Origin: Prochloron sp.
GTDB lineage: Bacteria; Cyanobacteriota; Cyanobacteriia; Cyanobacteriales; Prochloraceae
DNA: 64,000 nt
Assembly (NCBI GenBank): GCA_965198675.1
Contig: OZ240666.1
Location: 4,644,776 to 4,708,775, forward strand
Reading direction: 5' to 3'
Below are positions 5,942-57,577 of the stretch, in pieces. The notes under the pieces were generated by a model. The model saw nothing but the letters and a program-made list of their open reading frames with translations. It was not told where the DNA came from and searched no databases. How positions within the stretch are numbered: position 1 is the stretch's first letter; each line of letters starts with the position of its first letter. A program made the position numbers and the translations under genes.

Positions 5942-6130
5942 ATCTTTGGTGCTGCCCCCTCTACAAAGGAACTCAAGCGTACCCTCATTATGTTTGGTCT
6001 GCCAGCCTACGAAGCTTATGGTATGTTTAAATTAATATGCTGACCTGCAATTTACCAAATACATATCGCCACAACACAGTTGGTCCTGTCTGGCCTGGGG
6101 TTGAACTAAGACGTTGGTGCAACCCGATAA
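5939..6130 (+). pseudogene. fragments of an AMP-dependent synthetase/ligase gene
   Basis: MIFGAAPSTKELKRTLIMFGLPAYEAYGM and NTVGPVWPGVELR resemble adenylate-forming enzyme motifs, but they lie in short broken frames. Confidence 0.4.
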
Positions 6131-6199
6131 ATGCAAAAAACAACCTATTACTGACGATGATGAGCTATGTTTACTGTTTGCAATCCGTGGAGGTTGATC

Positions 6200-6622: not shown

Positions 6623-6658
6623 AGGGGAAATATAACAGGTGGTTGTTTGTTTTGGCAC

Positions 6659-7534
6659 TCACAAATCTCTAATACCATCAACTCTTTCTTGAGCTATCTC
6701 CCTTTCCCGTCGTAGGGGTTTGACAATTGATTCTGGTAATTGCTCGGCGTCTGCTAAGGCGCGATCGAAGTTCTGAACTGCTTGTTTTACTAGAAACATT
6801 GCTTTGTGTTGCTTCCCTTTTCCATGGAGAATTTGCCCTTTGAGATAGTATAGTTCTGGATTATTGGGGGTAATTTGAATAGCGCGATGAACAAACTGCA
6901 AGGCTTGGTCAAATTTTTGTAAATCTCGGTAAGCTACCGCAATACCCCGATAGACGAGATAATTGGGAGCTGCATTATCTTGGAAATTGGCGATCGCCCC
7001 TTCTATATTGGCAAAGGGAAGATTGACTGCTAAGAGCAATTCCATATATCCCTGAATCAAATTCAATTCCGGATCATCTGGATCTTGTTTTTCCGCTTGG
7101 TCGAAATAGTGGAGTACTTTTTGCAGTTTTGGTAGAGCAGCGAAAGCTCCTTCTGTTTCAAAAATGTAAGCCCCTTCCAAAAAATGGCCTACCCCTGTAT
7201 AAAGATTACCTCTTAAGGGATCTCGACCTTGCAAACTTTCTGCTGCGACTAAAGTCTTCCGAGCGTAAATTCTCAGGGTTTCTTTGTCGTTCTCAGTATA
7301 ACCGATAGCTGCCCGGAGAGCATGGGCGAGAGGATCTCTTACTTGATTATTTTCTTCCAGAACCTTCTTAGCTTGTTGGTAATTTCCTTCAGTAAACAAA
7401 ATGTTAAAAGCAGCTTCTGTCTGATCGTCAATATGGTGAGGGTTGGTGCTGCGAAAAGGATCCTCAGCAAAAGCAGCACTGCTCCAAAAACTTAAAACAA
7501 TACCTAAGAAAAGTACAGTAAATTTAGTATGCAA
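6659..7534 (-). CDS. secreted TPR-repeat protein
   Basis: 291 aa with an N-terminal signal peptide (MHTKFTVLFLGIVLSFWSSAAFA) and TPR-like helical repeats. Confidence 0.65.
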   Translation of the reverse strand: MHTKFTVLFLGIVLSFWSSAAFAEDPFRSTNPHHIDDQTEAAFNILFTEGNYQQAKKVLEENNQVRDPLAHALRAAIGYTENDKETLRIYARKTLVAAESLQGRDPLRGNLYTGVGHFLEGAYIFETEGAFAALPKLQKVLHYFDQAEKQDPDDPELNLIQGYMELLLAVNLPFANIEGAIANFQDNAAPNYLVYRGIAVAYRDLQKFDQALQFVHRAIQITPNNPELYYLKGQILHGKGKQHKAMFLVKQAVQNFDRALADAEQLPESIVKPLRREREIAQERVDGIRDL

Positions 7535-7570
7535 AAGTTTTTTTTATCTCCAGTCTTCAGTACGAGTATA

Positions 7571-7731
7571 TAGCAGTTACCAGTTACCAGTTACCAGTTA
7601 TGAGTTACCAGTTATGAGTTACCAGTTATGAGTTACCAGTTTATTCAGTCAGAGAAGCGGGTTATAACATTTCTCGCACGCCCAGGCGGTTGCTATATCT
7701 GACGACAGTAACTTTCTCCTGGTTCCATTCA
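7571..7731 (+). repeat. about 160-bp repeat unit (heptamer array plus conserved 105-bp core), copy a
   Basis: (CAGTTAC)n(CAGTTATGAGTTAC)n followed by TTTATTCAGTCAGAGAAGCGG...CTCCTGGTTCCATTCAGA. It is repeated at 7801..7955. Confidence 0.85.
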
Positions 7732-7800
7732 GATATGTACCAATGGTTATTATATTATATTTAGTGGGGGAAAATGACAAGGGTGTATCAATACTCATTA

Positions 7801-7955
7801 TAGCAGTTACCAGTTACCAGTTACCAGTTACCAGTTATGAGTTACCAGTTATGAGTTACCAGTTTATTCAGTCAGAGAAGCGGATTATAACATTTCTCGC
7901 ACGCCCAGGCGGTTGCTATATCTGACGACAGTAACTTTCTCCTGGTTCCATTCAG
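7801..7955 (+). repeat. about 160-bp repeat unit, copy b
   Basis: Same core as 7571..7731 with one substitution and a different number of heptamer units. Confidence 0.85.
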
Positions 7956-8072
7956 AATATTTGAATGATATGCTTTCGGAAGATTGCTATAATTAGTAAT
8001 TAGTACTGTTAACTGGTAACTGTTATTGCGAAGCTTTGCGTAAGCGTCCCGCCCTTGGCGTCTTGGTAACTG

Positions 8073-8717
8073 TTAACTGCTATAGGTGGTACTTGTTGAG
8101 TTCTCGCCCTTCAAGGCATAAACTAAAATTCTCAGAAGCAGATCAAGATCCTCAGGAACGCGAAAACTCTCTAATCCTTGACTGATATGTTTTGAGTGAC
8201 GATTAAGTTGGGAAAATTGCCATAGGGTACCAGTTGTGACGGCACCTAACAAATTCGAGTTATCATCATTCGGATCATCTAACCAGCGATCCAGAGTAAT
8301 TAATTCCACGGCAAGTTGAGTCATACCATTGACTAAGTCTTCCTTTTTGGCTTCAATCACTAGTAATTGTTGATTGGATCGGAGAAGGTAATCAAGGGTA
8401 CCTTGAAGTTGTTCTGAAACTTTTAAAGGATATTCAATGCGCAACTGAGCTTGGGTATAATGTACTAATTCTGTGACAACCCTAGAAATTAAAATTTCAC
8501 GGCGTGCCATTTCTGTACTAAGGTTTACGAAAGGTAAGATTTCACTAATACGAGAGCGCAACTCTTCGATCCGATCCAGTGGCTGTTGGGATTGGGGAAG
8601 GTTTAACCATTTTCGCGCGAAGGAATAACCAAAATCAGCAACCAGATCGTCAATCTCAATATTCAGTTCAAAGAATTTGCTAAAGGTATAAGATTGAGAG
8701 AAGTCAACAAAAGTCAT
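8073..8717 (-). CDS. hypothetical protein, possible PD-(D/E)xK nuclease fold
   Basis: 214-aa ORF; D...LLVIEAKKED resembles a PD-ExK core. This is a weak, motif-level call. Confidence 0.35.
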   Translation of the reverse strand: MTFVDFSQSYTFSKFFELNIEIDDLVADFGYSFARKWLNLPQSQQPLDRIEELRSRISEILPFVNLSTEMARREILISRVVTELVHYTQAQLRIEYPLKVSEQLQGTLDYLLRSNQQLLVIEAKKEDLVNGMTQLAVELITLDRWLDDPNDDNSNLLGAVTTGTLWQFSQLNRHSKHISQGLESFRVPEDLDLLLRILVYALKGENSTSTTYSS

Positions 8718-18444: not shown

Positions 18445-18890
18445 ATGTATCAGCAATTTATTCATTGTGTGAAATTCTTAATTTTCTCCTTGTGTCTTGT
18501 GGGAGTTAGTTCTGCACTAATATTCACCATCGGCTTGATTCTATTCGTGATAGAATGGCCGAAGAAATAACAAGGATATAACACTCTCCGTGTCAGCTAA
18601 AGAGGCGCGTCCCAAACAAGGCTGACACTTCCCCTCCTCAAACAGTGACCAGGACGCCAAGGGCGGGACGCCAAGGGCGGTTGCTTGCGCAAAGCTTCGC
18701 AATACCAGTTACCAGTTACCAGTCCTGCTCATGCCAACCGGGGCAGTCAGGCAGTTACCAGTCCTGCTCAGGTAAACCGGGGCAGTCAGGCAGGCGTCTG
18801 GTGCGGGGTTGGACCCACCCCCCACTGCTAAAGGGTAAATTCTCTATTAACAATAATTCACATTTTAATTGTAGCACACACTACTGTATA

Positions 18891-20677: not shown

Positions 20678-21579
20678 GAACCCATTTGAGATCTTTTTAA
20701 GTAGTGGCTAGCCTTTTAAGCATCAGTCGGACAAAACATAGACTAATCTTGGTATTAGCCTGCTCAAGAGTCCTTTCAAAGTTTTTGACCAAACTCTTGC
20801 ATCTTTCCATCCACGAATTAGTTCTTTCAATCACCCACCGCGCTTTTACTGGCACAAAACCGGTTTTTCCTTCCTTTTTCTTTTGAGCTTTTGATGGTTT
20901 ACGGGAGACCTTAAATCTAATCTTAGTCATAATCGCCGGATAAATTTTATGTAATTCCTGGGTCAGTTTTTCTGGGTGATATCCATGGTCAAGCAAAATG
21001 GTAATCTTGGGGATGTTGACTGGTTTAGACTTGAAATAATCTATGTTTTTCGATAACATTTCAATCAAACCCACATCGTCAGATACCGATGCTTTGGTGC
21101 AATGACTAAAAAAAGGAAAGCCCAAAGTATCTACTGCTAGATGTCTTTTAATACCATTGGTAGACTTGTAAAAACAAAACCCTTTCGACTTTACACTGGC
21201 GTTACAGGTATTTTTTACCGCTTGGGAGTCAATGATGATTAGGGTTGTCCATTGCCCTTTTTTTTTAACTTGCTGACGGACTCTACTATGCAAGATATCT
21301 CTGATTGCTTCGATTACTCCAAGCGATCGCCACTGTTTGTAGTACCAAAATACTGTGGAATAGGGGGGCAAGTCTTTGGGTAAGTCACACCAATTACAAC
21401 CATTCTTTAATTGGTACAAGATACCATCTAAAATCTGCCTTTTACTCCATTTTGGTGGTCTTGTCTGTTTCTTTTTGGGCAACAGAGGTTCTATTATTTT
21501 CCACTCCCCGTCTGTCAAACTACTTGAGTACGGCATTTTTTCCCTATTTTACTCCACAACAGAGATCTCAAATGGGTTC
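20678..21579 (-). mobile_element. IS5-family insertion sequence
   Basis: Perfect 17-bp terminal inverted repeats GAACCCATTTGAGATCT (20678..20694 and 21563..21579) are flanked by a 4-bp TATA duplication (20674..20677 and 21580..21583). Confidence 0.85.
20697..21536 (-). CDS. IS5-family DDE transposase
   Basis: 279 aa; MPYSSSLTDGEWKIIEPLLP...ILDGILYQLKNGCNWCDLPKDLPPYSTVFWYYKQW...IDSQAVKN...DHGYH...VIERTNSW, typical of the family. Confidence 0.9.
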   Translation of the reverse strand: MPYSSSLTDGEWKIIEPLLPKKKQTRPPKWSKRQILDGILYQLKNGCNWCDLPKDLPPYSTVFWYYKQWRSLGVIEAIRDILHSRVRQQVKKKGQWTTLIIIDSQAVKNTCNASVKSKGFCFYKSTNGIKRHLAVDTLGFPFFSHCTKASVSDDVGLIEMLSKNIDYFKSKPVNIPKITILLDHGYHPEKLTQELHKIYPAIMTKIRFKVSRKPSKAQKKKEGKTGFVPVKARWVIERTNSWMERCKSLVKNFERTLEQANTKISLCFVRLMLKRLATT

Positions 21580-22180: not shown

Positions 22181-22899
22181 CCCTAAATCTGTTTATCTCT
22201 AAAGTACTCATTCTAAGTTTACCACACTTCCAGCGCTTTGACAAACCTGTTTGCTTTCGGTGACACCCAGAAATTTATCTTGGTGTTGTTCAATGAGATA
22301 TGAGGTATGATGAGTAAAGAGCAAGTTATCCATTCTGAGGTTAGCCCAGGACTTATCTTCCCCATCGGCTTGATTCTATTTATTAGAAAATTTCCTAAGA
22401 GAGGAAGACGATCAAACACTCTCCGTGTCAGCTAAAGAGGCGCGTCCCAAACAAGGCTGACACTTCCCCTCCTCAAACAGTGACCAGGACGCCAAGGGCG
22501 GGACGCCAAGGGCGGTTGCTTGCGCAAAGCTTCGCAATACCAGTTACCAGTTACCAGTCCTGCTCATGCCAACCGGGGCAGTCAGGCAGTTACCAGTCCT
22601 GCTCAGGCAAACCGGGGCAGTCAGGCAGGCGTCTGGTGCGGGGTTGGACCCACCCCCCGAGCCAAGCTCCCAGGAGGGGGGTTGGGGGGTGGGTTGCTGC
22701 ATAACTGCTAAAGGGTAAATTCTCTATTAACAATAATTCACATTTTAATTGTAGCACACACTACTGTATATGCTATGATATGATAGTGGATAGTAAAATA
22801 GGAAACAATCGATACAGAAATGGCTATACCAGAAGTTGCGCCAAAGGCGAATCTCCTCCTGACTTACCCGGTAATAAAAAAGAAGAGAAGGAGAAAACT

Positions 22900-36741: not shown

Positions 36742-37374
36742 TTGACGAATAAAAATATGGTAACTGAAGATTTATACTCACAACTAAAAAATAAAAATCC
36801 CCGACTGCGGGAAAGAGCGATGGGTCAAATTGCTGATGAGCGTACTGAGGAGACCATTCCTCAGTTAATGGCAATTCTGGATTCGGAAGATGTGGTTTAT
36901 CGACGAGCAGCAGTGCAAACCCTGGGTTTGATTGGTCTTGACTCGGTTCCTTCCTTAATAGAGCAGTTAATCAACAGTGAAAATGAGACAGTACGGGCTA
37001 GTTGTGCAAAAGCACTGGCTGCGATCGCCCTCAATTTTCCGGAAGATTCTTTTCTCCCCTCAGCTCTGGAAGCCCTGAAAGGAGCACTGACAGACGAAAA
37101 TCCGGTGGTGAAAATCTCCGCTGTGGGCGCTCTCGGTACTGTTGGCCCGCCAGCTTTCGAGATTCTTGCAGAAGCACTCAAAATGGACGATCTGGCTCTC
37201 CAAGTTGCTTTAATCAATGCTCTAGGTTCCCTGGGGGATGAGCGGGGAATGTCCGTACTAGGGGCGATCGCGGCAAATGAATCAGCAGATCCCTACCTGA
37301 TTGAATCAGCAAAAAGTGCTTTATCCCGTCTGGAGCAAGTAATTAACTATGGGAAAGCAGGTCCGAGCCACTAA
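36742..37374 (+). CDS. cpeZ: HEAT-repeat lyase subunit, CpeZ-like
   Basis: 210 aa of HEAT repeats (LRERAMGQI...VVYRRAAVQTLGLIG...ETVRASCAKALAAI). Its size and PE context fit CpeZ. Confidence 0.6.
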   Translation: MTNKNMVTEDLYSQLKNKNPRLRERAMGQIADERTEETIPQLMAILDSEDVVYRRAAVQTLGLIGLDSVPSLIEQLINSENETVRASCAKALAAIALNFPEDSFLPSALEALKGALTDENPVVKISAVGALGTVGPPAFEILAEALKMDDLALQVALINALGSLGDERGMSVLGAIAANESADPYLIESAKSALSRLEQVINYGKAGPSH

Positions 37375-37800
37375 CTGTTTATGTTGTTGGGATGAATAAT
37401 AGTAACGCCTTCCATTGCTACAAAATCTTTTGGATTTAAAGTTAGAATATGAGTAATATTATGAGTTAACATTATTGCTTGTATTCGTAGATTGTGGGCT
37501 CGCTTACCTAAAATTTTGTGACTTGCAACAAGACTCAACCACTGAGGGAATATTGCTGGTGTTTCTTCTAACCACTCAAATTGATCTCTCAACATTTGTA
37601 CTGCTTGTTGAGTTTGTTCGGCTGTCCATCCTAATCCATTGACAGTAATAGGGCGAGTGGCTACTACCCAAAATTGTAATAAAGCATTGACCATCTTGTA
37701 ATAATATTTGTGAAATGGCATTGTTGATCGGGTCGTACTCAGACGAGTAGATATCAGTAAATCTTAGAATAATATTGGTATCTAATAAATAATTTGTCAT
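37371..37800 (-). pseudogene. vapC: PIN-domain VapC toxin, frameshifted
   Basis: MTNYLLDTNIILRF... (37576..37800) and ...LLQFWVVATRPITVNGLGWT...ILTLNPKDF (37371..37721) lie in different frames and together make one PIN domain. Confidence 0.7.
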
Positions 37801-37805
37801 CTGTC

Positions 37806-41300: not shown

Positions 41301-41648
41301 AATGGTTTCAGGATCTGCACCACCCCAGGTAGTCTCAATATTGGCGATGGCAACATTAATGTCAGGATCGCCTTCTTTCACCATGGTCGAGGCACCCATT
41401 AGCCCTCCTACAATCAGCAGTAGAGATAGGAGAATGGCAAATACTGTCTTGAGAAAGAAGAACTTGACAACGGGGGATGCTTTACTGGGATCGGGTACAT
41501 CGTGCCCCTCTGTTGGGTGGGATGTTTCTGGTGGAAGTAATCGCTGACTCATGGGTAAAGCAATGGGAGAATTAGGAAGATAGGTGAAAGTATTTGGATT
41601 GAGAAAAAAGCCTTGAAAGTTATTTTGGTTTCGATGAGACATAGCCAC
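38349..41648 (-). CDS. RND-family efflux transporter (AcrB-like)
   Basis: 1099 aa with 12-TM/large-periplasmic-loop architecture. The true start is probably an internal Met (MSQRLL...). Confidence 0.9.
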   Translation of the reverse strand: MAMSHRNQNNFQGFFLNPNTFTYLPNSPIALPMSQRLLPPETSHPTEGHDVPDPSKASPVVKFFFLKTVFAILLSLLLIVGGLMGASTMVKEGDPDINVAIANIETTWGGADPETIENQITDKIEKELKSLKGLKDLSSASFDGSSVIKVEFVAEAPIAESISLVRAEVDEAKPDIANDADEPKVEQISSQDTPVLTVGLYGNIDLAILSKVAEDIEEILETVPNVRKVDLSGNREEVIHVQLIPSRMIAMGVSAIQVADAIQQGNRDLPWDQIESDEIGTQLRYYGRFRSLEDLRNLPVARLEGEAGGRVVRLQEVAEVRRDLEKEKNRAFLSSQQGEFQPVITVDLVKVPGSDTIQVINDSLAAIESAKQNPTLWPHGMEYGVINTDAEAINKDLFNVFNNAWQGVLGVFIVLLFALTWREAIIAGLSIPLTFLGTLAVLFLLGFTLNKMVQVGMILALGLLVDVFILMMEGMHDGIFVEGLSFNQAALKTLRTYAVPAFSGQLTTILALAPLMAISGTMGKFVRLIPISAIVCLLLSYIIALFVDIPLSRLLLGNLKTKGQKSRIDRLTEIVANKFRNWSLAATIRNKTTAKIWALGAIALFISSTILVGTVPGTLFPDGDRRKLSINIELPPTTTLNTSQTVANEVGKLLQSKNYLASVIKLVGQRSNLVQESGIKPTNGSYLVGFSAIFTPEEDRAKPSFEYVDELRSELNTALRQYPGASLVVNGESTGEGGDPIEIELVGRDMGELRRISGEVQLALRQISGAIDVRDDLGALRPDLKLRPRREAMNFYGLSSNDLALQGRYLMTDNDIGNFPIGGGEEDLEIRLSTMWASRNGGIGGPTRRDELLSSPIFTSSGETIAGGQVLEVEFGNAPLSITHKDAQRTVTVLAKNEDGRTVGEIVADLEPKLAEMKRQWGEGYKYKFAGELETQGETFTSAGQMAIVALFLVFAVLVIQFSSFTQPFIIMLAIPFALIGTFLGFFILQIPISFPAVIGIIALTGIVVNDAIVMIETMNSHREKGVVVREAAARGAADRLRPILTTSITTIVGVIPLALSDPIWFPLASAIGFGLVASTLIALLVIPCLYLLLTPNNA

Positions 41649-42291
41649 CTACCAGTATAGCAATCAAGATCGCTGGATACATCTGTCCGACAACAGCCTC
41701 TAGGTTAGTTAGCATTTTGGCTAGAGGACTAACGGGGACGATATCGTCATAACCAAAAGTAGTTAACATAAGAAAACTCGAATAGACTACTTGTCCATAA
41801 TATTGTGTTTTGATAATTGGTTGTGAAAAAGCTTGATTGTCGAAACTATCAATAATACCGTAAAGCAAAGCCCAAACGAAACCAATTAGGAAATAAACAC
41901 AAATACCACCACGAATTGTATCTGCCGTTACTCGCTGACACAATAAAATATCTCGCAAAATCTAGAAGGCAGCCACACCTAAGTAAATGGCATATACGGC
42001 TTGAATTAAGAACAGAAACGATGTGGCTTCAGGACTGTACCAGCCAAACCTGGCGATAGTCTCTAGAGCAAATGCCAATCCTGCAACACCAAGATAGAGT
42101 CGGAAGAGCTTTTGGTGGAGGGAAAACGTTCTGACAATAATAATGATGGCGTATAGGGAAATTGCAGAAGATAATAAACCGCCGATCAGGCCATGGAGAA
42201 ATGGAGCAAGTACAAAATTAGTCACTAAGATAATTAACAGTTGAGTGTACTTGTTCGGGGATAGTGCCTTTGAGTTTAAAACAGGTTTCAT
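41620..42291 (-). pseudogene. potassium-channel-like protein with an in-frame TAG
   Basis: The two ORFs (41962..42291 and 41620..41958) share one frame, separated by a TAG at 41962..41964. The second ORF carries the pore signature TTFGYDD. Confidence 0.6.
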
Positions 42292-43396: not shown

Positions 43397-43513
43397 AACA
43401 ACTTACTCACCTTTCAGTTACCAGTGACCAGTAATCACGTACCATGGTAGCAGCTCAACCTTGGGTTTGAGGCCCCCACCACTTATTTGGTGGCAAGCCA
43501 CTTATTGGTGGAA

Positions 43514-43670
43514 GGTAACTGGTAACTGCCTGACTGCCCCGGTTGGCATGAGCAGGACTGGTAACTGGTAACTGGTAACTGCCTGACTGCCCCGGTTGGC
43601 ATGAGCAGGACTGGTAACTGGTAACTGGTAACTGGTAACTGGTAACTGGTAACTGGTAACTGGTAACTGT
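43514..43670. repeat. heptamer (GGTAACT/CAGTTAC) tandem arrays interleaved with a 33-bp module
   Basis: Runs of GGTAACT (up to about 8 units) alternate with two copies of GCCTGACTGCCCCGGTTGGCATGAGCAGGACTG. The same modules occur at 9480-9520, 18700-18800 and 22540-22640. Confidence 0.9.
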
Positions 43671-43778
43671 CATGGTACAAGGTCACTGTTTTACCATTTC
43701 GCCAAGCCTCCAAACCGGACTGGATGGTCAATTAACTCCATACATCATTGCACAATAAATAATAACCCTACTCCAACG

Positions 43779-45452: not shown

Positions 45453-46568
45453 TTAGAAATAGGTGCGATCTCGCTTCTTTAAATACATCTTGCCAAGTTC
45501 TGCTAAAGGCTTTAATCTATCAATATATGCTACCAAAGTAGCAACTCGTTCTCTTTGACTTAGTTCCTCTTGCAGCTCTACAATTAGCTCTGCTTGTTTT
45601 TGGATTTGACATTGCAACAACTGGCAATTTTGAGTCTTTTCCTCCAGGAGAGATTGCTGTGCGGTGAGTTGCTTTTGTAAATTATCTACCAGCTCTGCTT
45701 GTTCTTGAATTTGACGTTGCAACGATTCGCAATTTTGAGTCTTTTCCTCCAGGAGAGATTGCTGTGCGGTGAGCTGCTTTTGTAAGTTATCTATCAGCTC
45801 TGCTTGCTCTTGAGTTTGACGTTGCAACGATTCGCAATTTTGAGTCCTTTCCTCCAGGAGAGATTGCTGTGCGGTGAGTTGCTTTTGTAAATTATCTACC
45901 AGCTCTGCTTGTTCTTGAGTTTGACGTTGCAACGATTCGCAATTTTGAGTCCTTTCCCCCAGGAGAGATTGCTGTGCGGTGAGTTGCTTTTGTAAATTAT
46001 CTACCAGCTCTGCTTGTTCTTGAGTTTGACGTTGCAACGATTCGCAATTTTGAGTCCTTTCCTCCAGGAGAGATTTCTGTGCGATAAGCTGCTTTTGTAA
46101 GTTATCTAAGAGCTGGGTTTGCTCTTCAGCTTGCTGTTGCAGAGACTGAGAACTTTCTGCTTGAAGACTTGCAAGAGATGTTTGTTCGGCGAGGTGCTTT
46201 TCTAACTCAGTAATGCGTTTTCTCTGTGTTTCAATTTGCTCTATTGTAGAATCATTCTTTTCCTTGATTTCTTTATCCTCAGCTTCTGGTGTACCAGTTA
46301 CAATAGCAATCTTAACTTGTGTTGGGGATTCGTTGGTACCTTCTGTATCAGTTTCAATAGCAACAGTTTTCTCGGCTTCATTGCTGGCGATCGCCATTGA
46401 ACCCAAAACGAAGCGCTCGATTAATTCAGATTTAGATAATTGAGCTTTCTCAGCGATTCGATTGAGCAAATCAAATGCCTTCGACGTTAGGGAAATGCCT
46501 ACCTTTGATTTACTTTCCCCAGAATCTGAGGGTCTACGCCTTTTTCTTGCCATGGCATCTTTCTCCAA
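45453..46568 (-). CDS. ribbon-helix-helix plus long repetitive coiled-coil protein
   Basis: N-terminal CopG-like SKVGISLTSKAFDLLNRIAEKAQLSKSELIERFV, followed by about five 35-aa (105-bp) tandem repeats LQKQLTAQQSLLEERTQNCESLQRQTQEQAELVDN. Confidence 0.6.
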   Translation of the reverse strand: MEKDAMARKRRRPSDSGESKSKVGISLTSKAFDLLNRIAEKAQLSKSELIERFVLGSMAIASNEAEKTVAIETDTEGTNESPTQVKIAIVTGTPEAEDKEIKEKNDSTIEQIETQRKRITELEKHLAEQTSLASLQAESSQSLQQQAEEQTQLLDNLQKQLIAQKSLLEERTQNCESLQRQTQEQAELVDNLQKQLTAQQSLLGERTQNCESLQRQTQEQAELVDNLQKQLTAQQSLLEERTQNCESLQRQTQEQAELIDNLQKQLTAQQSLLEEKTQNCESLQRQIQEQAELVDNLQKQLTAQQSLLEEKTQNCQLLQCQIQKQAELIVELQEELSQRERVATLVAYIDRLKPLAELGKMYLKKRDRTYF

Positions 46569-46834: not shown

Positions 46835-48625
46835 TTAACGGTTAAAAACGCGACCACGCCATTTATTCAACCGCAGTTCTCCAATAGAAGCAACGGGACG
46901 CAAGTCGGCAATCTTTTCTCGCAAAGCAGCAATTTCCCGCTCTTGCTCTTCTGACTGCTGTTCTAAAGCCTCATAATCTCCTTCAATAGTAACACTAGCA
47001 GTGACTGGGCTGGGAACTTGCACCGTAATAGCAGTGGTACCATAAGAGGTGTTAGATTTCCACTTGTTCAACTCTGAGCTGCCAATGGTTGCCAAGGGCT
47101 GTAAATCTGCTAGCTGAGTGCGCAATTTGGCTAGTAATTCTTCCTGTTCGGCGCACTTGTTACGCATCGCTTGATAAGCTTCTTTGTGAGCTAATTCTTC
47201 CGCTGTTGGACCAATCGCTTCCGGGGGTCTGGGCTTGAGTATGGCTGCCAACAATTGATTTACATCAGTTAAATTAGTCCCTGGTGGCAATTCTCCCTCG
47301 GGAGTATTAGTCATGAGGGCTAGTTTCGTCAGAGGTTTATTCCGGGATACCAGAAGATCTTTGTCGCTACCAGAATTACCACGGAGCAGTTTGAATGTAT
47401 TGGTATAACCGAGGAGTTTCTTCCCTGTTTGGGTTTTATTACCTCGGTAATAGGGGACGATATTTTCCCCAAAAGCATCTTGATATTCGTCACTATCGAT
47501 ATAAGAATCGATTTCTGCCTCAAATCCCTCGCCGTCGAGTATTTTGCTCTGAGCGAAGGTTGAACTATAGTCGTCGGGAGCGCGACCAAGTAAATGCTTG
47601 AAATTCAACTCAATGGAGCGATAGCGGGGACAGTTTTCGAAAAAGCGAGAGCGGTATAATTCCGATTTGGCGAGTTGACGGACAAATTCCCGGACGCTAA
47701 TTTCCCCTCCTTTGAATTGGGATTCTGGGAGCACGAGTCGCTCGCTTTCCATTATGTGAGCATTGCCGAAAACTTGGCGATAGACAGCGCGAATTACCGT
47801 TTCTATTTCTTCTTCATCAGAACCCGGTACTAACTCAAAGATGGGCAAATCGCTGAATGCTTCGTATTGACTTTGAATCGAAACAGCAGTGGGGGAAAGC
47901 TTCTCCTCCTTTTTCTCCTCCTTGACACTCAGCCGAGCTAGCAGTTTCTCCGTCTCCCCCTTAAAGAGTAACTGCCAATAGGAGGGAACTCCTTCCAGGG
48001 GAACGATGGATCCGGAAGTATTGATCATCACAAACCAATTGAGACGAGAGCGATTTTGCCCCACAATGTCTTGATCGCTGCTGGAATAACCTCGCAACAA
48101 CCGGAACATATGGGGAAACCCAATGCCATTTTTCCCTGTCTGGGTTCGATATCCTCGATAATAGGGAACGATATGTTGACCGAAATTTTCCAGATATTCA
48201 TCGCTATCGATATAGGAATCTATTTCTGCCTCATAACCGAACCCGTCCAAAATGCGGGTATGAGCGATGATTTCCTCGTAGCTTTCCGGTGCGCGCCCAA
48301 GTAAATGCTTGAAATTCAATTCTACTGCCCGGTTGCGAGAGCAGTTGAGGAAAAAGCGAGAGCGGTAAAAGTCTGATTTAGCGATTTGGCGCACGAATTC
48401 CCGGACGCTAATATCCTTATTTTTCAGTTGGGATTCCGCTACAGCAAGCCTTTCGCTGTCCATGACGTGAGCATTGCCCAAAACTTGCCGATAGACGGCG
48501 CGAATGACGATGTCAATTTCTGACTCTGTTACTTTCGGGTTGAGTACGAGGGGTTCTATTTCTGCAAAGGGACTAACCCCTAATTCCGCACGACTTAAAG
48601 TAGGATTAATGAAACTCTGAACCAT
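46835..48625 (-). CDS. phycobilisome linker with two tandem linker domains and a novel repeated C-terminal tail
   Basis: 596 aa with two full linker domains (VIRAVYRQV(L/F)GNAH...LNFKHLLGRAP...EAEIDSYIDSDEY...IVPYYRG). It has no CpcD-like domain. The tail contains two ADL(Q/R)P(L/V)A(T/S)IG...LNKW(K/R) motifs. Confidence 0.85.
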   Translation of the reverse strand: MVQSFINPTLSRAELGVSPFAEIEPLVLNPKVTESEIDIVIRAVYRQVLGNAHVMDSERLAVAESQLKNKDISVREFVRQIAKSDFYRSRFFLNCSRNRAVELNFKHLLGRAPESYEEIIAHTRILDGFGYEAEIDSYIDSDEYLENFGQHIVPYYRGYRTQTGKNGIGFPHMFRLLRGYSSSDQDIVGQNRSRLNWFVMINTSGSIVPLEGVPSYWQLLFKGETEKLLARLSVKEEKKEEKLSPTAVSIQSQYEAFSDLPIFELVPGSDEEEIETVIRAVYRQVFGNAHIMESERLVLPESQFKGGEISVREFVRQLAKSELYRSRFFENCPRYRSIELNFKHLLGRAPDDYSSTFAQSKILDGEGFEAEIDSYIDSDEYQDAFGENIVPYYRGNKTQTGKKLLGYTNTFKLLRGNSGSDKDLLVSRNKPLTKLALMTNTPEGELPPGTNLTDVNQLLAAILKPRPPEAIGPTAEELAHKEAYQAMRNKCAEQEELLAKLRTQLADLQPLATIGSSELNKWKSNTSYGTTAITVQVPSPVTASVTIEGDYEALEQQSEEQEREIAALREKIADLRPVASIGELRLNKWRGRVFNR

Positions 48626-48630
48626 TTTTC

Positions 48631-48978
48631 TTATCTTCTCCTGAATGATAAATTTTCCGTTTTGTTATCAAATTTGGTATAAAAACCGCCGTATTTTAGC
48701 CAATATTGTTTTAGATCGTGATGGGGAGTATGCAAACTAGCTTTTGCTTGATATAATATCACTTGGCGATGATTTCCTATCCAAACTTTTCTGACTGGAT
48801 CTACGGAAATGAGGGTACCACCGAGACTGCGAACGCATTCTTCAAATCTCTCTACCGTAGAATATTCTAAGGTTTCAAATATATAAAAGTTTCCCGCACA
48901 AATAAGATACCTATTCCTAATCCAGCATTGCATTTTTTTGCTTGCTACTGGGGGCAACATAGTTCCTTTTTGCTCCAA
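48631..48978 (-). CDS. cpeR: phycoerythrin operon regulator CpeR
   Basis: ...MLPPVASKKMQCWIRNRYLICAGNFYIFETLEYSTVERFEECVRSLGG... resembles CpeR, and the gene lies directly after cpeT as in cpeCDESTR operons. Confidence 0.75.
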   Translation of the reverse strand: MEQKGTMLPPVASKKMQCWIRNRYLICAGNFYIFETLEYSTVERFEECVRSLGGTLISVDPVRKVWIGNHRQVILYQAKASLHTPHHDLKQYWLKYGGFYTKFDNKTENLSFRRR

Positions 48979-48987
48979 AACTAGGGT

Positions 48988-49635
48988 TTAAAAGAGCTGG
49001 TAACTGTCATGGTACGAGGTCACTGATTTTGGTACTTCGGACGCGAAACTTTGTACTTTCTCAAATCGCAATGGACCAGCAGCAGAACCCCAAACTTGCT
49101 CGTGGGTGTTAATATCCATCCCCCGATCTAAACTTACCCAAGTATTCTCAGTCAGTTCAATTTCGCTTTCAAGATATGTTGGACAACCTTTTCTTTCCAC
49201 CAGACATTTATTCCCCGGTTCAACACTTCCTCGAAACATATCTCCCTGTCTTTTAAATATCATGGAGCAGTGATAGCGTCGTTGGATACAGTCATGAGTA
49301 AGAGAGTCGAGAATTTCTCGCTCCCGACCACCACCTGCGTATAACAAACCATCTTTGAGGGCATAATTTTCAATATACACTTCCTCCCCCCTATCTATGA
49401 GACGATGTACTCCCTGACGGTAAGGACTCCAGAGGTCGTAGTCATATACTTGTTCGGAATAAAAACCGATGCTGTTGAAAAATTCCCAGGGTAAGGGACG
49501 AAAGAAAACGTGAATGTGAGCGTAGGTTTGAGGATTGGACTTTGCTTGTTTGTGATTAGAAAAATCCCCCGCCATCCAGCGAGCTAATTGCAACATTGAA
49601 TCATTGTTTTGTCTTTCTGTCTCTGGGAGAAGCAT
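48988..49635 (-). CDS. cpeT: T-type phycobilin lyase CpeT
   Basis: LQLARWMAGDFSNHKQAKSNPQTYAHIHVFFRPLP...YSEQVYDYDLWSPYRQGVH is the CpcT/CpeT signature. The C-terminus runs into heptamer-repeat sequence. Confidence 0.85.
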   Translation of the reverse strand: MLLPETERQNNDSMLQLARWMAGDFSNHKQAKSNPQTYAHIHVFFRPLPWEFFNSIGFYSEQVYDYDLWSPYRQGVHRLIDRGEEVYIENYALKDGLLYAGGGREREILDSLTHDCIQRRYHCSMIFKRQGDMFRGSVEPGNKCLVERKGCPTYLESEIELTENTWVSLDRGMDINTHEQVWGSAAGPLRFEKVQSFASEVPKSVTSYHDSYQLF

Positions 49636-49747
49636 TTTTGGGTATAAACTAGGGGTTTCTTAAATTGAACTAGTAGTGCGTCTAGACTAAAACTGTGAGT
49701 AAATAACAATCCTGTCTATTTAACTTCATATCCTGATCCCCCCGATC

Positions 49748-49911
49748 TAAGCTATCCTTGATAAGGAACTCTGAAACCCTTGATTGATAAGGGGATAGGG
49801 GGATAGGGGGATTGGGAGATAACGTGATTGGCTGATTTGGGGATTGTTTTATAGAACTTCCCCCAGCAAGACTCATAGCGTTCCTTATAAGGGTTAGCGA
49901 TCTAAGGGGGG
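49748..49911. repeat. 164-bp inverted-repeat element between cpeS and cpeT
   Basis: CCCCCCGATCTAAGCTATCCTTGATAAGGAAC (49748..49779) is nearly the reverse complement of GTTCCTTATAAGGGTTAGCGATCTAAGGGGGG (49880..49911). Confidence 0.6.
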
Positions 49912-49933
49912 TGACGGGGGGTGCCGTAAGGCA

Positions 49934-50458
49934 CTAGGTCTTCAAAGAGCGAATTTCGGAAGCAAAGGAAGCAGTGATTACCCCAGATCCAGCACTGGTT
50001 TTAATCAGGGATACGCGAAAACGTAAATTGGGGGTAGCAAACCAAATTTTCTCCTCCGCCATGGCGCGATCGTAGGGGGTTAAGAGGACAAAAACATCAT
50101 CTTCGTTAATGCGATATTCCCCCACAGAAGGCATGGTTTCCGCATAACCGCGATCGCGCAACAATTTCCCTTTTTTCGGCTCTTCCGGAACCGGCACTAA
50201 GATAGTGGTTCCTTTCAGTTCCTCATCTTCGTCCCAGTCTGACTCTCCTTCCCAGGTCATGCGAAAGGGAGAACTTGCTGCTTTTGGGTCAATTTGATGG
50301 AATTTGCACAAATCTATAACTTCCGGATCGTCGGTGGCTATAGCTTCAATCTCAAGGTTGGAAGTAACTGCTTCAAACTGCTGGAATGCCATATGATGTG
50401 CCGATCGCTGCGATCGCCAACTCCCAATTGACATTTCTACAAATTTGCTAATATCCAA
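49934..50458 (-). CDS. cpeS: S-type phycobilin lyase CpeS
   Basis: (TTG)DISKFVEMSIGSWRSQRSAHHMAF...KLLRDRGYAE...RFRVSLIKT. The N-terminal extension of the track ORF is a translated repeat. Confidence 0.75.
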   Translation of the reverse strand: MDISKFVEMSIGSWRSQRSAHHMAFQQFEAVTSNLEIEAIATDDPEVIDLCKFHQIDPKAASSPFRMTWEGESDWDEDEELKGTTILVPVPEEPKKGKLLRDRGYAETMPSVGEYRINEDDVFVLLTPYDRAMAEEKIWFATPNLRFRVSLIKTSAGSGVITASFASEIRSLKT

Positions 50459-50587
50459 GGTTTTGGGGTGTGGGGTGTAGGGTGTGGGGTGTAGTTGAAC
50501 ATCGTAGGTTGGGTTGAGGCAACGAAACCCAACAGCCAAGGAGATTTGTGTTGGGTAACGCTTGCGCTCTACCCAACCTACTATTGT

Positions 50588-50794
50588 TTATTGTAGGACT
50601 GTGACTCCAGTCACCTTACCTCCCAGGCGATGAATCTTCCGCATTTCCTGAACCATATTACTGTGAGACCCTTTAACTGTATAATCGCTCGTCCGCATTA
50701 CATCTTGACGACAGACTCCCGTTGCCTTAATCTCAACGATTCGACCGTCATAATCACTGGTCTTTATCGTCCCTGTGGTAGTCATTCCTGACAT
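50588..50794 (-). CDS. small CpcD-like linker-domain protein
   Basis: 68 aa from MSGMTTTG...: ...RIVEIKATGV...YTVKGSHSNMVQEMRKIHRLGGKVTGVTVLQ, a CpcD-type domain pattern. Confidence 0.65.
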   Translation of the reverse strand: MSGMTTTGTIKTSDYDGRIVEIKATGVCRQDVMRTSDYTVKGSHSNMVQEMRKIHRLGGKVTGVTVLQ

Positions 50795-51009
50795 AGCTTT
50801 TTCCTTAACTAATTTTGTTCTTTTCATCAATAAATAAATGGGAGTAGGAGAGTGGTGGAGTAGGGAAGTTGGGAAGTAGGGGAGATTGGGTATGATTGTC
50901 ACTTTTGCCAGCAAACTGATATACCTTTTCCACTACTGTTGGTGGGCAATGCCCACCCTACCACTTACCACTATCCCCCCATCACTCCATTATCCTATCC
51001 CCCATTGAT

Positions 51010-51589
51010 CTAAGCTACCTCAGTAATGCTGAGGATTTTGCCGCCAGTTTTGTGAATGTTTTGGATTTTCTGGGACATTTGGGCGTAACCCACCTCATAA
51101 ACCAAGTTGCTCTGCTTGTAGATTGGAGTAAGACCAGCTTTAGCAACAGCAATGCGGTAGCGCTTCCCAGTGTTGTCAGCAGCACCAGAACCAGCAGCAG
51201 GAGCGGTTACTGTCCCGGATCCATTACCTGCGGTAACCCCAATGAGCTTAGCTTGACCGCTGCGATCGCTGGTAGCATCTCCCCGCAGGAGGGTGAATCC
51301 CCGGACGTAGCTAGAGTTCTTAAACCCAAGCTGACTGCTGGTACTGCGAGCATAGGGAACCGTATTTTCCCCATAAGCACCCTGATACTCGTCGCTATCG
51401 ATATAAGAATCGATTTCTGCTTCATAACCGATAGCTTCTGCACTGACTAATCTTTGGTTGTCCAGTACGTGGATGTTGCCCAAAACCTGCTTGCTGCTTG
51501 TAAGCTGCCCGAATTACTTTCTGTACGTCTTCTTCAGTCGCCCCAGCACGCAGTTCAGTGGGTTCTGCTGACCTTACCCAGAGTGCCAT
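51010..51589 (-). pseudogene. PE rod-linker paralog, frameshifted by a 7-bp duplication and carrying an internal deletion
   Basis: MALWVRSAEPTELRAGATEEDVQKVIRAAYKQ (from the ATG at 51589) shifts frame at CAAGCAGCAAGCAG (51487..51500). About 65 aa of the linker-domain core are also absent between ...VSAEA and IGYEAEID. Confidence 0.85.
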
Positions 51590-51648
51590 TTAAATTCCTC
51601 CTTTTTTCTTATTTCCTATTTGTTATTTGTGATTTGTCAAACCCAGGG

Positions 51649-52416
51649 CTAAACTACCTCAGTAATGCTGAGAATTTTGCCCCCAGTTTTGTGAATGTTG
51701 CGCACTTGCTGGTTCAGTTGGCTGTAGTTAACCACGTATTCCAAATTGCTATATTTATTGAGAGTTGCGGGAGCAGCAGAAGTTGACACCGCAATGCGAT
51801 AGCGCTTATTGGTGTTGTCATAGGAGCCACCCCGACCCACTGCTGGTGCTTTAATGGCACTGGGTAGGTTACCTGCTACTGTAGATAACAGCTTAGTGGG
51901 CATATCCCGATCGCAGGAAGCACCACCCCGGAACAATTCAAAGGAGCGACCGTAGCTAGAATTGGGGAATCCTACCCGAGAGCTAATATTAGCGGCATAG
52001 GGAACTACATTGTCGCCGAACTTTTCCAGATACTCATCGCTACAGAGGTAGGAATCTATTTCTGCCTCAAAACCTTCCCCGTTATAGGTTTGGACGTGGG
52101 CGGAAAGTTCAGCCTGAGAGGTGGGTGCCCTCCCCAAAAGATGTTTGAAGTTCATCTCTACAAAGCGATAGGGGGGAGCGGATTGAAAAAATAAACCTTT
52201 ATACAAGGAAGACTTAGCCACCATACCCACGAAACCGCGCACGGTGATGTCTCCATTGCGCAGCATTGATTCTGCACTGGTGAGGCGATCGCTTTCCAGC
52301 ACGTGTTGGTTCCCCAAAACTTGCTTGTAAACAGCGCTAATTACTGCTTGGAGGTCTTCTTCAGTTGCACCCTCTCTTAATTCTACGGGATCTGTCTCTG
52401 TTACCCAGAATGCCAT
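51649..52416 (-). CDS. phycoerythrin-associated rod linker (linker domain plus CpcD-like C-terminus)
   Basis: 255 aa; ...VISAVYKQVLGNQHVLES...MNFKHLLGRAP...EAEIDSYLCSDEY...KRYRIAVS...VRNIHKTGGKILSITEVV. Confidence 0.85.
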   Translation of the reverse strand: MAFWVTETDPVELREGATEEDLQAVISAVYKQVLGNQHVLESDRLTSAESMLRNGDITVRGFVGMVAKSSLYKGLFFQSAPPYRFVEMNFKHLLGRAPTSQAELSAHVQTYNGEGFEAEIDSYLCSDEYLEKFGDNVVPYAANISSRVGFPNSSYGRSFELFRGGASCDRDMPTKLLSTVAGNLPSAIKAPAVGRGGSYDNTNKRYRIAVSTSAAPATLNKYSNLEYVVNYSQLNQQVRNIHKTGGKILSITEVV

Positions 52417-52513
52417 GGAAATTACTCCTGTTTTATTATTGGTTATTGGTTATTGGTTATTGGTTATTTGTTATTGATACAGCAACCAATAACAAATAAC
52501 GGGGAAGCCAGAT

Positions 52514-53315
52514 TTAGACAACCTCAGTAATAGAGAGGATTTTGCCCCCTGCTTTGTGAATTGTCTGTACTTCCTGGGACATTTGGCTATAGCTAACCAC
52601 CCGTTCCACCTTGCTATACTTATTCAGCCTTGCTGCTGCTGTTGAGGTAGAAAAAGCGATGGAGAAGCGCTTACCAGTATTGCCGTAATTTGCCCCATTC
52701 CCTACTGCTGGGGCTGCTATTGGGGTAGCCAAGTTAGCCGCGAGGGAGGTAATTAGGGTCGCCTCGTTACTATTGTCATTTGTCATTGGTTGCTGGTCCC
52801 CGAAGCAAGGAGAACATCCGATTGAAGCCCTCAGTCTTGATCCCAGTTTGGCTTTGAATGCTGCGGGGGTAAGGGACAAAATTCTCGCCAAAATTCTGGA
52901 AATACTCGTCGCTATCCAGATAAGAGTCGATTTCTGCTTCGTAGCCCCCTTCCTGATAAATTTCAACCTGTTCTATAATTTCAGCCTGATCCTGGGGAGG
53001 ACGACCCAACAAGTGCTTGCAGTTCAGCTCAATGAAACGATTCTGAGAGGAGGAGACAAAAAACAGTTTTTGATACTGTTCTGATTTTGCTACAAGACAG
53101 ACAAATCCCCGAACTGTTATATCCCCATCTCGCAGTAGGGCTTCAGCACTGTCTAGGCGATCGCATTCCATCAGGTGTTCGTTACCCAACACTTGCTTGT
53201 AAACAGCGCGAAAGACAGTTTGTAAGTCAGATTCAATTGCATGGGGGCGCAACTCCAGCGGGTCTACTTCAAAAGCATCCAGACCCAGGGTTTCGGAGCG
53301 GGCTAAAATTCCCAT
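52514..53315 (-). pseudogene. phycoerythrin-associated rod linker split by a 7-bp tandem duplication
   Basis: The linker domain (52776..53315) and the CpcD-like domain (52514..52966) are in different frames. Removing one ATGACAA unit at 52773..52786 gives a continuous 264-aa protein. Confidence 0.85.
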
Positions 53316-53405
53316 TGGTTATATCTCCTGATTAAATTGGTCTTAAAAATCTCTTTTCTAGAGACGTAAAAAAATATTACGCCTCTCTATCAGCTCTTCA
53401 GAGGC

Positions 53406-54170
53406 TTAAGCCACCTCTGTGATACTGACTATGGTCGCCCCAGTGCGATTAATCCGCTGAATTTGCGGTGTCATTTTGCCACCAGAAACGATATACTCCG
53501 TGGTGCTGCGACGGCGAGGACTGTCGAATTTAGAACCTTTAACCAGAATTTTAAAGGTTTTCTCGGTAGCATCTTGATAAGCAACGCTACGGGCCCCGGT
53601 AGCAGGGGCAATCTTGCTGCTGCTATTGGTAGCTACTTCTTGCACCAAGCGAGAAGCTTTATTACCGCTATCAATTTCTGCCACACCCCGGAACAGGGAT
53701 ACAGTGCGGGTATAACCCACCTGCTTTTGTCCCACCTGACTTACAGCACCTTGGTAATAAGGCACAGTGTTCTCCCCGAAGTTCTCCTGATACTCCAAAC
53801 TATCGATATAGGAGTCGATTTCTGCATCGTAGCCTTCTTCTACACAGGTGCAGATATGAGCGAAAACCTCACTTTGATCCGTAGGAGCGCGACCCAAGAT
53901 ATGCTTGAAGTTCAGCTCCACAAAGCGATAGGGGGCGCAGGATTCAAAATAGCGATCGCGGTAGAAGTCTGATTTAGCCACAGCCCGGACAAATTCCCGC
54001 ACTGTCAGAGTCCCCTCTAGGAACTGAGATTCCGCACTCACCAACCGCTCACTTTCCATGACGTGGGGGTTACCCAACACTTGCTTGTAAACTGCTCTAA
54101 TGGCAGCTTGTTTATCTGAAACCGTACTCGTGGACCATATTTCTACGGGTCCACCTAACACTGTGCTCAT
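53406..54170 (-). CDS. cpeD: phycoerythrin-associated rod linker (CpeD-like)
   Basis: 254 aa; ...AIRAVYKQVLGNPHVMESERL...LNFKHILGRAP...DAEIDSYIDSLEY...KTFKILV...RINRTGATIVSITEVA. Confidence 0.75.
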   Translation of the reverse strand: MSTVLGGPVEIWSTSTVSDKQAAIRAVYKQVLGNPHVMESERLVSAESQFLEGTLTVREFVRAVAKSDFYRDRYFESCAPYRFVELNFKHILGRAPTDQSEVFAHICTCVEEGYDAEIDSYIDSLEYQENFGENTVPYYQGAVSQVGQKQVGYTRTVSLFRGVAEIDSGNKASRLVQEVATNSSSKIAPATGARSVAYQDATEKTFKILVKGSKFDSPRRRSTTEYIVSGGKMTPQIQRINRTGATIVSITEVA

Positions 54171-54248
54171 GCAATTTCTCCTTAATCAAAGCTTTTCTCA
54201 AGTGGATTCAGGATAGAAGAACCGGTTTTTGACCCATTCCTCCGTCCC

Positions 54249-55127
54249 CTAAATTTCTGTAACACTGGCGATTTGACCGCCTTGTCGGTGAATCCGCTTG
54301 TATTGTTCGGAAAGCTTATCGAACGGTACAATGTACACCTTGTTAGAGCGGCGGAATTGAGATACCCGATTAACTGCACCAGGGGAAGCATAAGCTGTAA
54401 CCTCAATGCGGTAAACCTTCCCTTGATCCGAAGCACCAGTACCGTGACGAGTACGAGCACCCAGGGTGGTATCTTGGAAAGACCAGCCATTACCAGCGGT
54501 ACCAGAAGAAGGAGCAACTACAGGGAGGGGGGTTTCCTGAATCACGTGCTTATTCAACACAGGGCTCTTACCCGCCAAACTGCCTTTCAAATCGCTGGAA
54601 GAAGCACCTCGCAACATGGCAAACATATGAGTAAACCCAACCATATTTTGTCCTGGTTGGGTTTTGTAGCCTCTGTAGTAGGGAACGAAGTCTTCTCCAT
54701 AGGCATTCTGGTATTCGTTGCTATCCAGGTAGGAATCGATTTCTGCCTCAAATCCTTCACTATCCAGGATAGTGCTGTGTGTTCTCATTTCCTCCAAACC
54801 ATCGGGAGTACGCCCCAGGAGATGCTTGAAATTCAGCTCAATTGCCCGATAACGAGGAACAGAGTCGAAGAAGCGAGAGCGATACAAGTCTGATTTAGCC
54901 ACAGCGCGGATAAATTCTCTGACGCTGAGTTCTCCCCGTTTGAACTGGGATTCCGGAATAGTGGCACGTTCGCTCTCCATGACGTAAGCATTGCCCAAAA
55001 CTTGCCGATACACGGCGCGGATAATGCTTTCAACATCTTCTTCCGAGCGACCTGGAATCAGTTCTATGGGATCTGTATCTTCAAATAGGCCAACACCTAA
55101 TTGGGATGCGGGTCCAAAAACCATCAA
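54249..55127 (-). CDS. cpeC: phycoerythrin-associated rod linker CpeC
   Basis: 292 aa; ...IIRAVYRQVLGNAYVMESER...LNFKHLLGRTP...EAEIDSYLDSNEY...YRIEVTAY...YKRIHRQGGQIASVTEI. It is the first gene of the linker array. Confidence 0.8.
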   Translation of the reverse strand: MMVFGPASQLGVGLFEDTDPIELIPGRSEEDVESIIRAVYRQVLGNAYVMESERATIPESQFKRGELSVREFIRAVAKSDLYRSRFFDSVPRYRAIELNFKHLLGRTPDGLEEMRTHSTILDSEGFEAEIDSYLDSNEYQNAYGEDFVPYYRGYKTQPGQNMVGFTHMFAMLRGASSSDLKGSLAGKSPVLNKHVIQETPLPVVAPSSGTAGNGWSFQDTTLGARTRHGTGASDQGKVYRIEVTAYASPGAVNRVSQFRRSNKVYIVPFDKLSEQYKRIHRQGGQIASVTEI

Positions 55128-56680: not shown

Positions 56681-57082
56681 CTAGACTCTTGTTCGATTAT
56701 AGCGGTAAGGCTGATGGAGCCAATCTAAATACAACTGGGACTTACGAGCCAACTGAATTGCTAAATCCATTGCTTGTTTACGATTTTTTTCTGGATCGGG
56801 GACATTAATGATGGTAACGTGAAATTTACTATCTTGAATCCCATTTAATCCTAAGTCTCTCAGATCGGCAACTGAAAAGCTGATGACTCCATAGCATTTT
56901 TTTAGTCTGCTATAGGTTGCTTCTGGGGTTAAATTTGCTGAAAGGCCACGTTCTTGAGGACGGAGCAAAAATGCTTCTGGATCAACTTCTTTAGTATCTG
57001 GATCGATCCATCCTTTTTTCCGAATTGCTCGATATAAAATCCTATCATCTGATAATTCACTCACTGTTTTATATCTATCCAA
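56681..57082 (-). CDS. hypothetical protein (downstream gene of a two-gene cassette)
   Basis: A 133-aa ORF directly abutting 57083..57577. I recognise no family. Confidence 0.5.
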   Translation of the reverse strand: MDRYKTVSELSDDRILYRAIRKKGWIDPDTKEVDPEAFLLRPQERGLSANLTPEATYSRLKKCYGVISFSVADLRDLGLNGIQDSKFHVTIINVPDPEKNRKQAMDLAIQLARKSQLYLDWLHQPYRYNRTRV

Positions 57083-57577
57083 TTAAAATGAAGGAAGCTT
57101 ATTCTCATCAGTCCCTAACCATTGCAAAAGTTGAGCTAGTTTGGTTACAGAAGGTTGTTCAATTAGACAGCTTTCTAAATTTAGTCTAAAGTATACTGAT
57201 AAATGTACATTATCGGCAGTATGAGGAAAATGTAAACGAATTTCTTTATCTTGTACTTTACATTTCCAAACCAGGTTGATACCACCCTGACTATCTACAG
57301 AGCCATAGCCAAGTGGAAAAGATTCTCCAACTAAGTGATAGAGTTTTATAAGCAGGTTTATTGAACTAGAGAAAGCGTTTTCTGTTGGACAAAATATTTC
57401 ATCACCTTCTTCTTCCTCTAAGTCTTTATCTATTTCCCTCAGTTCCCACAATCGCTCAAAAGTAGTTTTGAAGTGCTGATTATTAAATTCCTTGGAAACC
57501 ATCTCATGGATTTCTTCAAGTCTGAGTACTGGCTCAATCGTTTTAAGCATTTTGATAACTCCTAATTTAAATTCCAA
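57083..57577 (-). CDS. hypothetical acidic protein (upstream gene of a two-gene cassette)
   Basis: A 164-aa ORF with a GGAG-containing leader. I recognise no family. Confidence 0.5.
   Translation of the reverse strand: MEFKLGVIKMLKTIEPVLRLEEIHEMVSKEFNNQHFKTTFERLWELREIDKDLEEEEGDEIFCPTENAFSSSINLLIKLYHLVGESFPLGYGSVDSQGGINLVWKCKVQDKEIRLHFPHTADNVHLSVYFRLNLESCLIEQPSVTKLAQLLQWLGTDENKLPSF

Follow-up and report, generated by a model that had tools for sequence, protein, structure and literature searches.

Gene C, one of three tandem rod-linker paralogs (called A, B and C in operon order) in the 64,000-nucleotide stretch of DNA analysed here (the window), is, as judged from its sequence, a genuine and recently formed pseudogene of a redundant rod linker, because its reading frame is shifted by a 7-bp tandem duplication of CAAGCAG and the core of its linker domain is removed by a separate 189-bp deletion. 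With good confidence we regard the lineage-specific loss of function of one of three redundant paralogs, that is ordinary gene decay, as the probable explanation of the whole. The host would be a cyanobacterium of the 'Paraprochloron' clade, whose members are sponge symbionts (PMC9298193). The locus would thus show a symbiont lineage trimming its redundant set of phycoerythrin rod linkers, with four related genomes doing so by four different routes. This can be used for the annotation and evolutionary context of the operon, and for reading the light-harvesting capacity and the stage of genome reduction of such symbionts.

On the plus strand the duplication reads CTGCTTGCTGCTTG (51487-51500), two exact heptamer copies without extension on either side. 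On the coding (minus) strand of gene C the sequence is TAC AAG CAG / CAAGCAG / GTT TTG GGC, and the duplication falls inside the AAYKQ/VLGN motif of the rod linker. From the ATG at 51589 the minus-strand ORF is translated as MALWVRSAEPTELRAGATEEDVQKVIRAAYKQ; the frame shifts after codon 32, directly behind AAYKQ, and the shifted frame is closed by a stop at 51422. When one heptamer unit was deleted in silico, an ORF of 190 aa was obtained, which passes through ...VLGNIHVLDNQRL... and ends with ...GGKILSITEVA. At the equivalent position the intact paralog B reads TACAAGCAAGTTTTGGG. A preliminary description of this DNA had placed two CTGCTTG copies in the AYKQVLGN motif, with a frame shift in the ORF that begins with the ATG at 51589, and had stated that removal of one unit restores a 190-aa frame through to the CpcD-like end; the sequence and the repaired ORF agree with it on each of these points. 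Taken by itself, an exact 2x7 tandem could be a chance product, about 4.1 being expected per 64 kb in shuffled sequence. Because the extra heptamer is absent from the SP5CPC1 ortholog (see below), the duplication is taken to be a real mutation. Its derived state, proposed earlier from a comparison with the intact paralog, is upheld by this intact ortholog with its single CAAGCAG. The microhomology flanking the duplication is 0 nt (repeat run of 14 nt).

The second lesion, the in-frame 189-bp deletion with the junction ...SAEA/IGYEAEID, deprives gene C of about half of its PF00427 linker domain, namely the middle part, and the lost segment is still present in SP5CPC1 and in a close relative. 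The preliminary description had recognized this loss and put it at about 65 aa; the deletion is real, but its size is 63 aa. Pfam analysis of the window copy returned a PBS_linker (PF00427) match over the last 31 positions of the model only (96-126 of 126), i.e. the full domain is absent, and a complete CpcD-like domain (PF01383) in the downstream frame (positions 1-55 of 55, E = 6e-15). The full PF00427 domain was found in the SP5CPC1 ortholog of C and in paralogs A and B. Gene C has no uninterrupted frame from its start codon to the CpcD domain, and a 7-bp deletion is needed to restore one. More than 100 homologs of the gene C ortholog and all paralogs were uninterrupted in the homolog comparison, with the window copy of A as the frameshifted exception. 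These homologs have ~253 aa and often carry the JGI name 'phycoerythrin-associated linker protein', and CpcC-type rod linkers are the nearest solved single-domain relatives of this type. NCBIfam contains no CpeC/D/E-specific model, and all matches there were sub-threshold matches to CpcG; an assignment as CpcG rod-core linker (NF058511-14) was rejected, the intact ortholog scoring 110 bits and the repaired window copy 37 against a cutoff of 420-440. The lesions of gene C are absent from its orthologs and the ancestral state is intact, which is the comparative signature of a pseudogene, and the frame shift together with the lost linker core bears out the earlier view that the gene is probably dead.

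Table 1. Positions of the linker genes, duplications, repeat arrays and neighbouring genes in the window.
Feature	Position	Strand	Remarks
Phycoerythrin linker/lyase operon	46835..55127	-	Pfam; identical order in relatives' gene calls
Paralog A	52514..53315	-	sole disabling lesion is the AATGACA duplication; repaired frame of 264 aa equals length of relative's intact gene
7-bp tandem duplication AATGACA x2 (coding strand)	52773..52786	-	exact; frameshifts paralog A; microhomology 1 nt (run 15 nt)
Heptamer array CCAATAA/CAAATAA (coding strand), A-to-B spacer	52436..52476	-	found in 4/4 genomes; one unit more in window than in close relative
Paralog B, intact 255-aa linker (PF00427 + PF01383)	51649..52416	-	Pfam; dN/dS 0.10
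Degenerate TAACAAA-like heptamer array, B-to-C spacer	51605..51637	-	directly upstream of ribosome-binding site of C; conserved in relatives
Gene C, phycoerythrin-type rod linker, predicted pseudogene	51010..51589	-	frameshift and 189-bp deletion; ortholog 253 aa; repaired frame 190 aa
7-bp tandem duplication CTGCTTG x2 (coding CAAGCAG x2)	51487..51500	-	exact; single copy in SP5CPC1 ortholog
Junction of 189-bp (63-aa) in-frame deletion	51431..51432	-	microhomology ~1 nt
CpeS	49934-50539	-	Pfam
CpeT (PF06206)	48988-49635	-	position matches relatives' gene calls
Small gene in cpeR position	48631-48978	-	by position

The setting of gene C is a phycoerythrin operon with cpeS, cpeT and a cpeR-like gene, in the order cpeC-like (292 aa), 254-aa linker, A, B, C, cpcD-like, cpeS, cpeT, cpeR-like and a 596-aa protein with two linker domains; no family model matched the gene in the cpeR position. 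Besides its two PBS_linker domains, the 596-aa protein (46835-48625) has a C-terminal tail that is repetitive and coiled-coil-like. This protein is conserved in 4/4 genomes, with 88-95% identity when compared with LD05 and the close relative, and longer relatives of ~780-1020 aa are found in other marine cyanobacteria. Paralog A is frameshifted by its own heptamer, AATGACA, which is single in SP5CPC1 and in the close relative, the latter being otherwise identical at the site. Gene A also contains, in codons 73-127 (52926-53105), a 180-bp patch with 51 differences from the close relative, the rest of the gene being nearly identical; the window branch accounts for 21 nonsynonymous and 17 synonymous changes in this patch. 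It looks like an imported recombination tract or a gene-conversion tract, and no donor was found among the sequences collected for comparison.

The ancestral state was addressed with the closest species-level genomes, 'Ca. Paraprochloron terpiosi' SP5CPC1 and LD05 (window ~91-92% identical in DNA to each), and with the close relative (ENA ERZ22157276 ctg13830c, a 4.72-Mb circular contig), of which 41.6 kb syntenic with the window were compared at 94-99% DNA identity. In SP5CPC1, gene A is open across the heptamer site (partial contig), B is intact, and C is an intact gene of 253 aa (1593-2354 of the SP5CPC1 sequence piece). In the close relative, A is intact with 264 aa and corresponds to the window sequence minus one AATGACA, B is intact, and C is broken by a 76-bp deletion across the heptamer site and by a 563-bp deletion fusing C to the end of the cpcD-like gene. 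In LD05, a 3' remnant is all that is left of A, and B is fused to C. In the window, B is the only one of the three paralogs that is intact. By comparison of the gene states in these four genomes, both heptamer duplications and the 189-bp deletion are derived and specific to the window lineage, and gene C has been lost independently at least three times.

Details of the related genomes deserve mention in their own right. The 563-bp deletion in the close relative (piece 7470-8130) removes from C its CpcD domain, together with most of the cpcD-like gene, and leaves a 142-aa fusion ORF; because most of this gene is removed, the small capping-type linker that it encodes is lost in the close-relative lineage, and it is kept in the window at ~50588-50797. 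The single linker of LD05 (piece 6001-6765) follows B up to NKRYRIA and C thereafter, with the last few codons of A upstream (~5900-5940), so this chimera appears to have formed by recombination between paralogs, with one of the three being kept. The NCBI contig of SP5CPC1 shows a 138-bp in-frame deletion in cpeS (piece ~1750-2172); in the ENA scaffold that encodes the identical C protein this place is taken up by a run of N, and a gap in the assembly, rather than a true lesion, may account for the deletion.

As to timing, dN/dS of the window against SP5CPC1 was 0.19 for C and 0.27 for A, with 0.13-0.24 for neighbouring genes. Because the value of C lies within the 0.10-0.24 of intact neighbours, its inactivation would be recent; the value fits a recent event and is by itself no proof of relaxed constraint. 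Downstream of AATGACA, gene A differs from the close relative by one nonsynonymous change only, and both frameshifts are, as far as sequence comparison can date them, recent. The better-supported shared cause of the two frameshifts would be relaxed selection on the redundant A/B/C paralogs, which we prefer because two sister genomes have lost gene C by other routes. In the scenario that we propose, CAAGCAG would have been copied in tandem, shifting the frame after codon 32, and a separate 189-bp deletion would have removed the linker-domain core of a gene that was presumably free to decay owing to the redundancy of the paralogs and to general gene loss in the lineage. The duplication most likely arose by a slippage error of replication or repair that was independent of microhomology, and the equal 7-bp length of the lesions in A and C would be either a coincidence or the outcome of slippage with a modest preference for heptamers in this genome. 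The 7-bp lesions do not indicate a targeted or regulatory mechanism.

The equal length of the two lesions is the observation for which other explanations had to be weighed. The preliminary description considered two exact heptamer duplications in adjacent paralogs unlikely to be coincidental. This was not established by our comparison: 7-bp events account for two of the 46 indels in the 38 kb aligned to the close relative, and other genes of this lineage are broken by lesions of other kinds. The 46 indels comprise, among others, eight of 1 bp, eight of 2 bp, four of 8 bp and the two of 7 bp, and the 7-bp share becomes 3/47 when the duplication of gene C is included, which is hidden under the 76-bp deletion of the close relative. 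Recent gene-breaking lesions other than the heptamers, all within 42 kb, are an IS insertion, a 17-bp deletion and a stop codon. For the ~42 kb compared, the probability of a 7-bp length in both gene-breaking duplications lies roughly between 0.001 and 0.2 according to the null model chosen, i.e. the equal length is suggestive and not decisive. In an ORF-merging test covering all exact tandem duplications of 4-14 bp in the window, only the heptamer of A and one 4-mer at 56283 (probably a chance occurrence) were flagged; the site in C, 32 codons downstream of the start, fell below the arm-length threshold of this test.

The alternative that survives best, though we hold it to be rather unlikely, is a heptamer-biased mutational process, e.g. 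slippage over a polymerase contact of ~7 nt, which would have made both duplications as newborn heptamer repeats. Such slippage has already been put forward in the literature: according to the summary in PMC4679880, Mrazek et al. 2007 proposed, as an explanation for the abundance of heptanucleotide repeats, that slippage by heptamers is favoured where the polymerase contacts ~7 nt. Several observations point in the same direction. Exact heptamer tandems number 20 in the window against ~4.1 expected from shuffles, and the spacers of the operon hold heptamer arrays of different units, of which the CCAATAA array gained its extra unit in the window lineage. Four clean tandem duplications of de novo origin have a unit of at least 4 bp (AATG, AATGACA, CAAGCAG and, in the close relative, GAATATCT), and two of them have 7 bp. 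Moreover, the microhomology of only 1 and 0 nt at the duplications in A and C is atypical of bacterial tandem duplications, of which only ~25-30% lack microhomology (bioRxiv 10.64898/2026.02.28.708716).

These observations are outweighed by the nature of most heptamer sites in the window, which are either TAACTGG arrays on MITE-like insertions or old spacer arrays shared with relatives. Within the syntenic stretch there are 12 heptamer sites, six on MITE-like insertions absent from the close relative and three in old shared spacer arrays; the remaining three comprise one in a segment lost by the relative's 563-bp deletion and the two coding duplications. The excess of heptamers was thus rejected as a record of heptamer births in place, since six of the 12 were brought by insertions and three belong to old shared arrays. 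Isolated two-copy heptamers occur in the window at about chance level (5 versus 4.1 expected), and the indel spectrum lies mostly at 1-2 bp and includes 4-bp and 8-bp duplications too, in a sample of only ~42 kb. The more far-reaching proposal that a heptamer-specific duplication process has been caught at work draws on the fact that all three 7-bp gains of the window lineage fall within 1.3 kb; we judge it improbable. If it were true, the two single-copy coding sites would show the birth of cyanobacterial heptamer arrays, and a fixed step of 7-nt re-priming or of staggered cutting and fill-in would be possible, which becomes visible only where selection on the paralogs has lapsed. The matching 7-nt length gives no more than a small hint on the old question of why 7-nt repeats are common in cyanobacteria.

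That the duplications are artefacts of sequencing or assembly, the organism itself having intact genes, is very unlikely. The source appears to be one single contig, which may stem from a long-read assembly, but an exact 7-bp tandem copy is atypical as a sequencing error, long genes of the window are uninterrupted (1017, 1099, 627 and 596 aa), and gene C carries the independent 189-bp deletion and is separately broken in the close relative. No more credible is the notion that the heptamer doublets act as phase-variation switches, or are bypassed by programmed frameshifting, and thereby tune the linker composition. It could draw on gene A, which has no other disabling lesion and a single nonsynonymous difference from the relative's intact copy downstream of the doublet, and on the heptamer arrays in the 5' regions of B and C. 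Two copies are, however, a very poor slippage tract (the tract at 51487-51500 has two units only and does not qualify as an SSR-mediated phase-variable locus), gene C is beyond rescue with 63 aa of its domain core gone, the sequence shows no evident slippery or stimulatory motif, and no polymorphic alleles were seen in public contigs, where a metagenome scan for either allele at 51487-51500 and a protein-based scan with B returned no close relatives. An equally implausible origin is the insertion and excision of an element with 7-bp staggered cuts that left its target-site duplication behind: mobile elements are active in this lineage, with one IS and several MITE-like insertions that the close relative does not have, and duplications devoid of microhomology are compatible with fill-in, but bacterial IS elements rarely excise leaving intact target duplications. 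A transposon excision footprint was rejected because the target duplications measured within the window have 4 bp (TATA) and 3 bp (GGT), and never 7 bp.

Further broken genes and mobile elements were recorded in the window. A 901-bp IS5-family element at 20679-21579, with a TATA target duplication, has the inverted repeat GAACCCATTTGAGATCT and a transposase ORF at 20697-21536; it interrupts an EAD4/NB-ARC STAND NTPase gene, the copy of which is intact in the close relative (567 aa). A 281-bp MITE-like insertion with a GGT target duplication lies at 43412-43692, and related copies are found near 18652-18793 and 22487-22628; these insertions are absent from the close relative and carry TAACTGG-type heptamer arrays and a repeated core of 39-53 bp, and two copies flank the STAND NTPase gene. 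A PIN-domain (toxin-like) gene at 37371-37803 has lost its frame through a 17-bp deletion; the close relative has an intact gene of 148 aa. The K+ channel gene (Ion_trans_2) at 41620-42276 differs from the intact 218-aa gene of the relative by an in-frame stop, an altered start and a selectivity filter that reads GYD in place of GYG, and is probably a pseudogene. At 4277-5647, beyond the coverage of the relative, two adjacent ORFs contain only the extreme N- and C-terminal parts of a UvrD-like helicase, probably the remnant of a gene with a large internal deletion. Repeat and segment differences were seen as well: a 105-bp tandem repeat in ~5 copies (45586-46205, in the 371-aa ORF 45453-46568) differs in copy number from LD05 (210-bp difference) and from the close relative, and the window has a 298-bp segment (56992-57291), among small duplicated ORFs at 57-58 kb, that is absent from the close relative.

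Compared with known systems, the cluster resembles operons of the cpeCDE-cpeSTR type in its cpeS, cpeT and cpeR-like neighbours, but it holds five single linkers and one two-domain linker in place of the classic three linkers of cpeCDE. The intact C ortholog and paralogs A and B share the domain order of the CpeC/CpeD/CpeE linkers (PF00427 followed by PF01383), whereas window C is a frameshifted remnant without 63 aa of linker core and not a working member of this group. With the cyanobacterial heptanucleotide repeats (STRR / TAACTGA-type) the duplications share the unit length of 7, in a window rich in heptamer arrays that extend into the operon spacers; unlike such arrays, those in A and C have two copies only, lie in coding sequence and have unrelated units, and most arrays of the window sit on MITE-like insertions. 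Microhomology-mediated tandem duplication (MTD) likewise yields short de novo tandem duplications of single-copy DNA, but its arms typically have 3-4 nt or more; with repeat runs of 14 and 15 nt, i.e. microhomology of 0 nt for CAAGCAG and 1 nt for AATGACA, MTD was rejected for both heptamers. A further parallel is pseudogene formation in host-restricted symbionts early in genome reduction: here, too, several lineage-specific inactivations by varied lesions are found within 42 kb and the redundant genes concerned are lost by other routes in sister genomes, the only oddity being that two of the three small frameshifting lesions are exact 7-bp duplications.
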